Part shown: positions 30,800-33,718 of the stretch, piece after piece
How positions within the stretch are numbered: the stretch's first letter is position 1
How the letters are laid out: each line of letters opens with the position of its first letter
DNA from: Escherichia phage T4
Reading direction: 5' to 3' (one strand)
Sequence record: NC_000866.4
Length of the DNA: 64,000 bases
The notes under the pieces: model-generated
The model's input: the letters and a program-made list of their open reading frames with translations, nothing else
Databases searched by the model: none
What the model was told of the DNA's origin: nothing
Position numbers and translations under genes: made by a program

Positions 30800-31120
30800 T
30801 TATTCTTTAAATCTAATCAATTTATTCATAGACTTTGAAACTTCGGCACGAACCTCATGTAGATTTTTGAGCTGTTCAAGACGCTGCGTATAGTAAGCAA
30901 TTTCATCTTCTTCGAGACAGTCCTGCGAATCTTCTTTAAGATAACGTGCATAGTCCTGGAAAGCGTTACGGACTACTTCCTGGAAGTCATCAAGACTTTG
31001 AATTTTCTTAGGAGCAACAGATACACGACGAGGGGCAGTATAATACTCATAACCAAACCCTGCGCTTAATTGAGCCATTAGTATTTTTCCTCTGGTTGGA
31101 ACACTGCACGACAAGCCCAC
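30800..31120 (-). CDS. hypothetical protein (vs.3-like)
   Basis: 106 aa ORF. Confidence 0.5.
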
Positions 31121-31380
31121 ATACTGGCTTCTTTGAGTTTCGTTTTAGCAATAGTTAACTGATCGAGACTTTCAGCATAATTCTTCGCGAATTCACAGTC
31201 TTCGCAATTATCTAGTGCTTCCCAGAATTCATCATATAAAGCATCAAAGATAAGTCCTAAACGAACTTCAGCGTCTTTAATAGCATTTACTTTACCGATT
31301 TTCTCTTCAGTATGTGGTTTATAACCCTTAATATCTTCAATCATATTTGACTTCCTCACCAGTACATAATACGTATTCAA
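31078..31380 (-). CDS. acb2: Vs.4-like protein, probable Acb2 cyclic-oligonucleotide sponge (anti-CBASS)
   Basis: About 90-100 aa ORF at the vs.4 position; T4 Vs.4 is the described Acb2; true start may be internal (MIEDIKGY). Confidence 0.6.
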
Positions 31381-31556
31381 CTAAACGAATAGGTTCATGA
31401 ATGCCATAGCCTTGAACAGAAATTTCTGTCGTAGGATAAATTCCATCAATATCACCCATATTCCACGCTTCATTAAATTGCTGTTCGCCTGAGTTACTAA
31501 ACCACTCGCGAAAGCATTTAGCACATCTTCAGAACCTTCAATAATTATCTTTGCCA

Positions 31557-31919
31557 TTACAAACTTTCAGTAAAGGTACGAGCGATAACGTCGCGCTGCT
31601 GTTCCGGAGTCAGAGAGTTAAAGCGAACTGCATAACCGGATACACGGATGGTCAGCTGCGGATATTTTTCCGGATGCTTAACTGCATCTTCCAGAGTTTC
31701 ATGACGCAGAACGTTAACGTTCAGGTGTTGACCACCTTCAATTTTAACTGTAGGTTGTGGCTCAATTTCAATTTCACGGGCATGCAAACCATAGAAAATT
31801 TCTGGGTCTACAAAAGAGTCCTCTTTAAAGGTTTTAGAGACAATAATTCGTGCTTGAATACCATCTTCAAAATAAATAGTACCTTTATGTGTGCCTTCAA
31901 GAATTTGATATGCTTTCAT
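31557..31919 (-). CDS. glycyl-radical spare-part protein (GrcA/YfiD-like, vs.6-like)
   Basis: 120 aa; C-terminus [59 protein letters not shown] carries glycyl-radical motif RVSGYA. Confidence 0.8.
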
Positions 31920-31926
31920 ATAAACC

Positions 31927-32307
31927 TCAATTAGAAAATAAATTTATCCAAGATTGTTCTTTAATTAAAAATGGCTCAGAATCATATGCCATTAAACTTT
32001 GCGTAATTAATCCTTTAAAAGGTCCATCAATAAATTCCATGGTAAAATATGGAATTTTATTCATTAGCCGTGCATTAGGAGCAGTGCACAAAACTCTGCA
32101 TCCTTTGAATACGCCTTTTTGTAATTTGTATTGCTTGGGATAAAATTCGCTCAAAATGTTATTTTTTGCCAAAATTTCAAAATGATTCACCAATTTATTT
32201 TTAATAGTTTTTGGCGAAAAATAAAGATATTCGAAAAGCTGAGTGTCTGTCATCATTGCATTCCGATTACGAAAAACTGTGGACGAGTAATACCACCAAT
32301 GCAACAT
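31927..32307 (-). CDS. hypothetical protein (vs.7-like)
   Basis: 126 aa ORF. Confidence 0.5.
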
Positions 32308-32912
32308 TTACTATTACAGCAGTAGTGTACGGTGTCAATATGGACACTATAAATCTTATCCATATCAGGAGATTTGACAGGCTCATCAATTATATACAAA
32401 ATTCGCGAAAGCTTTAAACCTCTGAACTTGCTTCCTTTATTACCAATAAAACTGCGTACAGAATCAGTAAATAAACGAAAACGTATATCATCATTAGAAT
32501 AACGCGAAAATTCCTTTTTGATGTTATTTGCAGAAATTTTAGCATAAGCTGAAGTATTAGAAAGAACAATAACTGTTCCGCCATCATACAACCAATTAGC
32601 AGCAAAGTTAGTCACAGCAATTGATTTACCGGATTGACGTCCACCATCTAGTCGAAGTGTACAATACTGTTTAAGTAAGTCTTCAAATGGCGGGATATAT
32701 TCGTTTTTACAAATTTCTTCTACTCTAGCATCAGAATGGTGTGTAAAAGCATTCATCAGGGATAGATAAGGACCAGTTAAAAATGTTCTCATTTCTTCTC
32801 TATAAGCTCTATAAGTTTGGGCCATTCCGTGGCACATGAATTGTCCATTTCTGTATTTACCCATTACCGCGCTTGGGCTCGACCTTATTACAGGTTGGCG
32901 GGAATCCCTCAT
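32253..32912 (-). CDS. hypothetical P-loop protein (vs.8-like)
   Basis: 219 aa; Walker A-like GGRQSGKS; start probably over-extended. Confidence 0.5.
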   Translation of the reverse strand: MRDSRQPVIRSSPSAVMGKYRNGQFMCHGMAQTYRAYREEMRTFLTGPYLSLMNAFTHHSDARVEEICKNEYIPPFEDLLKQYCTLRLDGGRQSGKSIAVTNFAANWLYDGGTVIVLSNTSAYAKISANNIKKEFSRYSNDDIRFRLFTDSVRSFIGNKGSKFRGLKLSRILYIIDEPVKSPDMDKIYSVHIDTVHYCCNSKCCIGGITRPQFFVIGMQ

Positions 32913-32938
32913 ATAATCATGAGGTCCAGGTTGTTCCC

Positions 32939-33355
32939 TTATGCATAAATCGCCTTACCGTAGTATTTGTACCAAGTAGGACGTTGTGCAATTTTTTCAT
33001 CTAAACGAGCTTGTGATATAGCAATAGAAGCTTCATGGGGAATATAATCACCACGGAATTCCTGAGGAATATCACTAATATCCTGGACTGTAGTATCCTT
33101 GATATTAAAACCACGTTTTAAACATTCAGCTATAAGCTCAATTTGACGTTTACGTAAGAACTCGAGCTTATCGTAAAAGAATGTAACATGACCTGCGCCA
33201 AGGATAAAAGTAGGACTGATTTTAAAATCACGAACACGTTTACCGTTAGCAACATGCTTACGAACTGCACCAAAAACACGCGGCAATTCACGATATTCAG
33301 CCATTAAGTGTTGGTCAGCCAATTCAGATACTAAAGTAAGGTTGATACGAGTCAT
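32939..33355 (-). CDS. denV: endonuclease V (pyrimidine dimer DNA glycosylase)
   Basis: 138 aa [28 protein letters not shown]...; matches T4 endo V. Confidence 0.95.
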
Positions 33356-33385
33356 TTTAGTGTTCTCCTGTAGTTGATAGGTCTA

Positions 33386-33414
33386 TAGTATCATACCTAC
33401 AGGAGATGTAAACT
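33386..33414 (-). promoter_or_regulatory. T4-type early promoter of denV
   Basis: Minus strand GTTTAC-17-TACTAT. Confidence 0.65.
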
Positions 33415-33415
33415 G

Positions 33416-33718
33416 TTATTTATCTTTAATTGCTTTAGCTGCTTCGATAGCCGCTTGCTGAAGGTCATCCATAGACATGCCGAACTTAGAAGCAAAGTTA
33501 TCAATTTTCTTTTCGACGGCATTCAAAGGCTTGGCCTGTTTACCTTCATTAGCGCCAGGAAGAGCGAGAATACGCTCTCTGTCAATATAAAGGCTTACAA
33601 GTTTCTTACGGTCTTTATCGGGCAAATCATGAAATGAATGGGCCTTTTTATTTACAGCGGCTTCTAATTTACCTGCGCCCACTCGCGCTTCGGCAATAAA
33701 TTCTTGATATGTTTTCAT
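33416..33718 (-). CDS. ipII: internal protein II
   Basis: 100 aa; N-terminus MKTYQEFIAEA shared with ipIII (capsid targeting sequence). Confidence 0.85.
   Translation of the reverse strand: MKTYQEFIAEARVGAGKLEAAVNKKAHSFHDLPDKDRKKLVSLYIDRERILALPGANEGKQAKPLNAVEKKIDNFASKFGMSMDDLQQAAIEAAKAIKDK

Follow-up and report, generated by a model that had tools for sequence, protein, structure and literature searches.

The gene vs.8 of Escherichia phage T4 lies on the minus strand of the 64,000-nt stretch of DNA analysed here (sequence record NC_000866.4; referred to as the window, in whose numbering coordinates are given unless another record is named). It is annotated as an open reading frame (ORF) of 219 amino acids (aa) with an ATG start, and the vs.8-like ORF named in the original prediction, which described an uncharacterised Walker A protein upstream of denV, is found in the ORF list exactly as predicted. 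The placement upstream of denV holds in plus-strand coordinates only; denV and vs.8 are both minus-strand genes, and transcription reaches vs.8 after denV. It follows denV directly and is itself followed on the same strand by vs.7, vs.6, vs.5, vs.4, vs.3 and regB. It is likely that vs.8 encodes a single-domain, stand-alone P-loop ATPase core of 179 aa, belonging to the additional-strand catalytic-glutamate (ASCE) class and homologous to approximately residues 141 to 288 of the T4 large terminase gp17, and that the gene is preceded by a conserved, structured RNA leader. The features of the locus are as follows.

32253–32912, minus strand: vs.8 ORF as annotated, 219 aa, ATG start
32253–32792, minus strand: likely real vs.8 coding sequence (CDS), 179 aa, from ATG 32790–32792 (M41 of the 219-aa ORF) to the stop TGA 32253–32255, from profile and homologues
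32622–32645, minus strand: Walker A motif (P-loop) GGRQSGKS with the terminase-typical Arg-Gln (R52 and Q53 of the 179 aa), invariant, aligned by hhalign to gp17 160–167
32418–32423, minus strand: invariant Arg-Gly of FRG (R124-G125 of the 179 aa), 13 residues before the catalytic Glu, aligned to gp17 R245-G246 (VRG)
32379–32402, minus strand: Walker B motif with catalytic carboxylate, ILYIIDEP (D136-E137), aligned to gp17 MIYIDE (D255-E256)
32256–32276, minus strand: C-terminal strand FFVIGMQ at the protein end (strand 172–178 of the model), with F173, G177 and Q179 invariant
32254–32256, minus strand: vs.7 start codon overlapping the vs.8 stop (ATGA), a 4-nt overlap also present in L007
32793–32938, minus strand: structured, GC-rich 5' leader of 146 nt, formerly codons 1–40 of the 219-aa ORF, from the denV stop (32939–32941) to the vs.8 start
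32907–32924, minus strand: leader hairpin CCUCAU-GAUUAU-AUGAGG, with the annotated ATG 32910–32912 paired in its 3' arm
32858–32900, minus strand: 43-nt RNA core (covariance model R1), consisting of P2 closing P3 (ACCU-GUAAUA-AGGU), GAGC-NNNN-GNGC and GGUAA-N-G
32821–32833, minus strand: hairpin P5, GCCA-CGGAA-UGGC, with GGA in the loop and three pairs paired in 31/31 sequences
32798–32815, minus strand: 9-bp tandem duplication (CTTATAGAG twice), present in the window and in record X04567 and absent from modern T4 genomes

Start codon and length of the vs.8 product

The suspicion that the start of the ORF is over-extended was borne out. The match to PHROG 1488 comprises residues 43 to 219 of the annotated product and positions 2 to 177 of the 177 profile positions (E 6.6e-79), and the same profile is matched by 48/48 family members. 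Homologues retrieved from two very large protein collections are 173 to 181 aa long and start at a methionine equivalent to M41, just upstream of which the frame is closed in relatives. L024, L076 and Ozark, near-identical to T4, carry a TAG three codons before M41, where they differ from T4 by one base, and closure zero to four codons upstream of M41 is seen in L011, L014, L015, L023, L024 and L076. The annotated ATG, base-paired in the leader hairpin, is a GTG in Ozark-type phages, in which the hairpin is kept. A check of the ribosome-binding site, proposed together with the original prediction, revealed that all lineages have a purine-rich Shine-Dalgarno-like tract a few bases upstream of the M41 codon. 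Taken together, the span of the profile match, the homologue starts, the upstream stop codons, the paired ATG and the Shine-Dalgarno-like tract indicate that the product is most likely 179 aa in length (32253 to 32792), as far as can be judged from sequence.

It is very improbable that T4 itself makes the longer product (219 aa in the window and 216 aa in modern T4) from the ATG at 32912 or from one of the internal methionines M17, M26 and M30, as annotated in GenBank. The frame is open in T4, and gene callers pick versions of 194 to 196 aa in some relatives. Against this stand the pairing of the annotated ATG and its replacement by GTG, the TAG in phages otherwise near-identical to T4 and the Shine-Dalgarno-like tract before M41 in all lineages; moreover, the extension region tolerates a 9-bp insertion or deletion, and its pattern of conservation fits paired RNA rather than codons.

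Positions 32100 to 33000 of the window are 100% identical to the T4 record X04567 from 1986 and 98.9% identical to modern T4 genomes. The 9-bp duplication is the reason why vs.8 is annotated with 219 aa here and with 216 aa in modern T4. A T/C difference from modern T4 at position 32818 falls, like the duplication, in the supposed N-terminal extension, and both are either old sequencing differences or strain differences.

Motifs, fold and terminase homology of Vs.8

The predicted P-loop GGRQSGKS (Gx4GKS) is present at residues 90 to 97 of the 219-aa ORF. Since DGGRQSGK[ST] is invariant in 19/19 homologues and the P-loop Arg, Gly and flanking positions show a conservation of 90% or more among 48 sequences with identities as low as approximately 20%, the Gx4GK[ST] pattern is not a chance match. 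That no further NTPase motifs could be recognised, as had been stated, does not hold, since a Walker B motif followed by a catalytic Glu exists at 32379 to 32402; within it, I134, I135, E137 and P138 are invariant in the family alignment and D136 is at least 90% conserved. Trans-acting arginine fingers of terminases sit in loops before the Walker B strand (PMC5727402), and R124 of the invariant Arg-Gly is a candidate arginine finger, while R113 is a second invariant Arg in the family alignment. The C-terminal strand FFVIGMQ probably occupies the position of terminase/helicase motif III (gp17 IIITTTP), a correspondence based on the order of secondary-structure elements, as the hhalign match stops at gp17 residue 276.

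Structure prediction, also suggested as a check, yielded a P-loop fold in the AlphaFold model, i.e. a five-stranded, three-layer α/β arrangement with a parallel sheet as in ASCE proteins; a prediction without a P-loop NTPase fold had been named as the outcome that would speak against the assignment. The sequence signatures of the ASCE class, Walker A (GxxxxGK[ST]) and Walker B (hhhhD) with the catalytic Glu, are both found. Vs.8 should be able to bind Mg-ATP via its P-loop and probably hydrolyses it, in which case E137 would be the catalytic residue. It may be oligomeric, with an arginine provided in trans by a neighbouring subunit. In a few very distant members of the family, His replaces the Lys of Walker A, and two distant members (P0065 and P0067), with GH for the GK of Walker A and no Glu after Walker B, are possibly inactive derivatives.

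A profile search, the remaining check proposed, linked Vs.8 to the gp17-type terminase ATPase core. In an hhalign comparison of the 48-member Vs.8 profile with a profile of T4-like large-terminase N-domains, a probability of 97.6% (E 3.6e-12) was obtained, with GGRQSGKS paired with LSRQLGKT and FRGLKLSRILYIIDEP with VRGNSFAMIYIDEC. When members were scanned singly, 27/48 matched the terminase family PHROG 2 over approximately 100 residues (best E 3.9e-8), and 19/48 matched Pfam Terminase_6N (best E 6.8e-5), all of the latter below the cut-off. T4 Vs.8 itself reached 12.7 bits with Terminase_6N at a cut-off of 22, which is below the curated threshold for large terminases (TerL). A pairwise BLASTP comparison of Vs.8 with gp17 returned a mis-registered top high-scoring segment pair and one covering Walker A at E 0.30, sequence and profile searches of the PDB returned only insignificant matches (between the Walker B region and a coupling protein of a DNA translocase), and Foldseek against the PDB found generic ASCE matches with template-modelling (TM) scores of about 0.45, without discrimination between classes. 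A scan of Vs.8 against NCBIfam gave no match. No Pfam family was found above the cut-off; a match to Toxin_19 falls on a T4-specific, Cys-rich, low-confidence loop (157–177) and was dismissed as chance. PADLOC matches to PtuA and HerA were rejected as weak (E 0.01–0.03).

Of the features that define a TerL, Vs.8 has a homologous ATPase core in which the P-loop Arg is kept, a residue established as a signature of terminases and packaging ATPases (PMC5727402). The lid subdomain and the [ST][ST][TP] coupling motif are absent, the protein ending at FFVIGMQ, and so is the C-terminal RNase H-like nuclease domain, as nothing follows the ATPase core within the 179 aa. Neither are small terminase or portal genes found in the neighbourhood: genes 16, 17 and 20 are located at 96.2 to 102.8 kb of the T4 genome and vs.8 at 64.2 to 64.9 kb, i.e. 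about 33 kb away and among early genes. By its sequence, Vs.8 resembles a terminase ATPase core yet fails several of the tests that define membership in the large terminases. Compared to gp17 (610 aa; PDB 2O0H, 3CPE), it lacks the N-terminal region (gp17 residues 1–140), the lid and nuclease domains and the conserved adenine-binding Gln, and G-M-Q replaces the TTT coupling motif. The packaging ATPase gp16 of phage phi29 (PDB 5HD9 for its N-terminal domain; Foldseek TM approximately 0.46) is, like Vs.8, a small packaging-type ASCE protein without nuclease domain, but it is a member of the HerA/FtsK-like branch and carries a C-terminal domain; it acts on the portal together with the packaging RNA (pRNA), and packaging depends on it, a link that is not known for Vs.8. 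Superfamily 2 (SF2) helicases (DEAD-box, RIG-I, Mfd, RecG), whose RecA1 domains are also among the nearest known systems, differ in having two RecA-like domains and motifs Ia, III (SAT) and VI, which were not found in the model or the alignment of Vs.8; the latter has a single domain without RecA2 and without an inter-domain ATP site, lacks motifs Q, Ia, Ib and SAT, and carries the terminase-type Arg-Gln in its Walker A motif.

The Vs.8 family is narrow: of 1.84 billion representatives, only 50 clusters matched at E<=0.001, and these are without exception small stand-alone proteins. Over 49 informative pairs of vs.8 genes, the median ratio of non-synonymous to synonymous substitutions (dN/dS) is 0.10. 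This rules out a decaying fragment, and the view that vs.8 is a functionless piece of a duplicated terminase gene is extremely improbable. Vs.8 is shorter than a large terminase, and the region is hyperplastic, with neighbours (denV, ip genes) that come and go; besides the low dN/dS, however, several T4-like genera retain length and motifs down to approximately 40% identity, and both the position of the gene and its dedicated leader are conserved.

In the BFVD, small (140 to 175 aa) uncharacterised proteins of many large or jumbo phages, among them phiRSL1, 201phi2-1, PhiPA3, EL, phiAS5 and Acinetobacter phage 133, have predicted folds similar to that of Vs.8 at TM 0.5 to 0.7. These model-based matches hint at a wider set of stand-alone mini ATPases.

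The leader RNA and its core in other phages

In T4, the best-studied phage, the 5' end of vs.8 has carried forty annotated codons for four decades; this stretch is probably structured RNA and not coding. In phages whose Vs.8 proteins are only 39 to 46% identical, the leader has a nucleotide identity of about 0.70 versus about 0.60 for the CDS, and a 32-nt block within it is almost invariant. In an anchor-based alignment of 31 distinct T4-like leaders, the sequences of P1, P1b, P2, P3 and P5 change while the pairing is kept by compensatory changes: P1 is GGGAA/UUCCC in T4 and AAGCUA/UAGCUU, AAAGGC/GCCUUU or AAAGA/UCUUU elsewhere; P1b is GAACG/CGUCC or GAACA/UGUUC; P2 is CCC/GGG, CUGG/CCAG or UCCA/UGGG within the T4-like leaders; and P3 is ACCU/AGGU or GCCU/AGGC. 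P5 of L007 reads GUCA-UGGA-UGAC, with one compensatory change from C-G to U-A. An alternative fold proposed by RNAalifold from a plain MAFFT alignment (CUGUA/UGCGG together with GGU-CGA-GCC) was rejected in favour of the P3 hairpin because L005 and L020 show a double change from A-U to G-C and because P3 is 8 bp long in the second core copy of L073.

The inner part of the leader, a core of 43 nt, is not confined to T4-like phages. The covariance model R1 finds a single copy in the window (66 bits, E 1.9e-21; the next best window match has 9.9 bits), and in total 50 copies of the core in 48 sources were obtained. The core is present in the Kagunavirus fEg-Eco19 (L201, 1470–1660) and in phage Ivi (L200, 1500–1695), in each case in the gap after the endolysin gene, as well as in L055, in contigs of approximately 39, 46 to 70, 75 and 85 to 140 kb and in a jumbo contig of 371 kb, each with its own P2 sequence. 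In a model-based alignment, the three inner pairs of P2 are kept in 38/38 distinct sequences, and three to five pair types occur at each of them. P2 covariation is 0.351 in this alignment, compared to 0.113 in shuffled versions (reached in 0/500) and at most 0.072 in slid registers; with a hand-registered alignment the values are 0.405 and 0.135. The G-U pairs occur on the sense strand only and would be A-C mismatches on the other strand, which argues for RNA. In the Kagunavirus and Ivi, the core lies between promoter-like hexamers (identified by eye) and a hairpin with a U-run resembling an intrinsic terminator, and the unit holds a CU-rich AUCACCUCCU tract, which we take to be identical to the 3' end of 16S rRNA. 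This arrangement has the appearance of an independent small RNA carrying an anti-Shine-Dalgarno seed.

Several observations were made at the edges of the leader. In Ozark-type phages, denV (window 32939–33355) is replaced by an unrelated gene (L003, 2334–2807) called 'internal virion protein' in sister records, and similarity to T4 picks up again within a few bases of the stop of this upstream gene, i.e. at the start of the leader. Four T4-like contigs (L022, L084, L119 and L198) carry a gene starting MKTYKEFITEAK between the leader and vs.8, with a duplicated P5 hairpin segment in front of vs.8; the N-terminus encoded by this gene resembles the T4 internal proteins IpII and IpIII. The insertion of such an ip-like gene behind the leader means that the leader also marks a junction of module swapping. 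In L017 (5095–5248), L029 (9023–9177) and L073, two diverged tandem copies of the RNA core are located upstream of vs.8, the second of which has a plain hairpin with a CGC loop instead of GAGC-NNNN-GNGC; its P3 is the one lengthened to 8 bp in L073.

These rearrangements raise the question of whether the conserved stretch acts as DNA, either as a recombination cassette for module shuffling or as a protein-binding site. Its 5' edge coincides with the breakpoint of the denV replacement, ip-like genes interrupt it where the P5 segment is duplicated, tandem copies occur in some phages, and the folding energy of the single T4 leader does not stand out from that of shuffled sequences (z = -0.24). 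The RNA reading also has caveats: the P2 register, with or without a bulged G, was picked to maximise pairing, so that the paired counts are somewhat inflated, the model-fitted core alignment (A7) leans towards structure, the number of independent lineages with the core is modest, and GAGC-NNNN-GNGC, although it can be drawn as a hairpin, was discarded as such for want of covariation. A DNA-level element is nevertheless unlikely, as the P2 sequence differs fully between lineages and stays paired, at a covariation well above that of the shuffled alignments; the restriction of G-U pairs to the sense strand and the position of the Kagunavirus core between promoter- and terminator-like sequences likewise speak for a transcribed RNA.

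The 43-nt core resembles junction-type aptamers in being compact, with invariant junction nucleotides and a covarying closing helix. The vs.8 leader is, like the structured 5' leaders and translational operators of other T4 mRNAs, a conserved folded element just upstream of a start codon. Unlike these T4 leaders and operators, the vs.8 core also occurs outside the T4-like phages, apparently in stand-alone transcripts, and has no counterpart in Rfam 15, where no relevant match was obtained for the T4 leader (E<=10), for six related loci (E<=1) or for the Kagunavirus (E<=10), the weak matches in the latter covering only the 3' terminator region. The exact core pattern was not found in 100,044 bacterial and archaeal genomes, the element of L055 had no match in E. 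coli genomes, no tRNA or tmRNA was identified in the leader by ARAGORN, and a literature search by sequence strings and by T4 small RNAs did not retrieve a description of the core. A scan of 31800 to 33500 found promoter-like sites at the frequency expected by chance (7 versus 6.8) and no terminator.

The leader would probably control vs.8 translation or act as a functional RNA itself. Only tentatively, the core is proposed to be an undescribed class of phage RNA, either an aptamer for a ligand or protein or a small-RNA module, which in T4 might gate the production of Vs.8 or give rise to a stable RNA. As an RNA with a core common to unrelated phages, the leader is the part of the locus most worth following up; if functional, it would be a new phage RNA element which is genetically easy to test in T4.

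Possible roles of Vs.8 and its genomic surroundings

The term 'uncharacterised' applies to Vs.8 only in part. Its terminase-ATPase homology and its toxicity with EcAvs2 had already been reported: vs.8 emerged when T4 proteins were screened against EcAvs2 with AlphaFold 3, its co-expression with EcAvs2 is toxic, and its relatedness to the terminase ATPase of T4 and its Walker A and B motifs were noted (bioRxiv 10.64898/2026.04.30.721860, May 2026). Of the non-terminase Avs2 activators, vs.8 alone has detectable terminase sequence homology and Walker A/B motifs, and the authors suggest that such activators may be anti-defence proteins (bioRxiv 10.64898/2026.04.30.721860). Two others, Ksap1 and Ksap2, are, like Vs.8, small phage proteins of restricted lineage distribution, built on a sheet-and-helix core that resembles the terminase ATPase. 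As a protein, Vs.8 is therefore an ordinary finding known in outline, a T4 gene product with a stand-alone variant of the terminase ATPase core and a reported Avs2 activator. The terminase homology of the preprint is independently confirmed here, and the 179-aa start, the strictly conserved full catalytic set and the strong purifying selection are new and relevant to any expression or deletion of vs.8.

Wherever it is readable, the context of vs.8 is that of T4-like phages, with the lysozyme/ip/denV block on one side and the Acb2/regB/vs block on the other. The product of vs.4 (31081–31344, minus strand) matches Pfam Acb2_Tad1_hairpin (E 7e-20) and is presumably the anti-CBASS protein Acb2. 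The vs.3 gene (30803–31078, minus strand) has been identified as the type IV Thoeris inhibitor TadIV-1 (PMC13243611). With these identities, vs.8 resides within a block holding two anti-defence genes, and a selected terminase ATPase core in such a block offers a handle on the co-evolution of phages and terminase-sensing immunity (Avs, Upx).

Since Vs.8 has no lid, nuclease or portal-binding parts, it should be unable to package DNA, and by itself it would neither translocate nor cut DNA. The bacterial terminase sensor EcAvs2 may recognise it because of an ATP-loaded, terminase-like face, to judge from the reported toxicity and AlphaFold 3 model. On account of its position beside vs.3 and vs.4, a role in the conflict between phage and host immunity, as a terminase look-alike or as an ATPase acting on a host factor, is the leading conjecture, with a probability somewhat short of even. 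One sub-case within this share is a pure, non-catalytic decoy, in which Vs.8 would be primarily an early, ATP-loaded terminase mimic that occupies Avs1-3, Upx or other sensors non-productively or titrates them before terminase appears. The terminase-like surface, predicted to occupy the EcAvs2 pocket (bioRxiv 10.64898/2026.04.30.721860), the gene block shared with Acb2 and TadIV-1, the absence of every part needed for packaging and the anti-defence idea raised by the preprint authors are in line with such a decoy. The sole reported experiment, however, showed activation of EcAvs2 (toxicity) and not inhibition, and a decoy that activates Avs2 would be self-defeating; in addition, the strict conservation of the catalytic Glu and of the Arg-Gly exceeds what a passive mimic needs and argues for real chemistry. 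A purely passive decoy is rather unlikely for these reasons.

The same conservation could reflect a working enzyme unrelated to immunity, i.e. an ATPase that works as an oligomer on a nucleic acid or a protein early in infection, alone or with the product of a neighbouring gene. Purifying selection is strong and every catalytic residue is invariant, the candidate arginine finger among them, many large and jumbo phages encode small stand-alone ATPases with a comparable predicted fold, and the overlap of the vs.8 stop with the vs.7 start suggests coupled translation. This reading is doubtful, albeit not far-fetched, considering that no substrate-binding domain is evident in the 179 aa, that STML-198 and the distant locus L009 lack a conserved vs.7 partner, and that the family has a very narrow distribution. 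An obligate partnership with Vs.7 was rejected: the downstream protein in STML-198 is unrelated, which makes an obligate Vs.7-Vs.8 pair unlikely, and the neighbour in L009 is a different one. In the boldest version of the tentative proposal of a new RNA class, Vs.8 and its leader RNA would act together, as an RNA-dependent ATPase, in the conflict between phage and host immunity.

Further observations concern the neighbouring genes and annotations. Two Vs.8 homologues (P0005 and P0006) bear the database name 'endoribonuclease', for which there is no support in their sequences; the label looks like an annotation spill-over from the nearby regB. The frame of vs.5 in modern T4 (222 nt; 31336–31557 of the window, minus strand) contains a stop in the window, where X04567 annotates a 58-aa ORF (62.7), and this discrepancy is probably another old-sequence difference. 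The product of vs.6 (31557–31919, minus strand) has a C-terminal glycyl-radical domain (Pfam Gly_radical, E 9.6e-18) and looks like a small stand-alone glycyl-radical module, taken here as a spare-part protein. In the distant phage L009, a 217-aa glycyl-radical gene is located two genes upstream of the vs.8 homologue.

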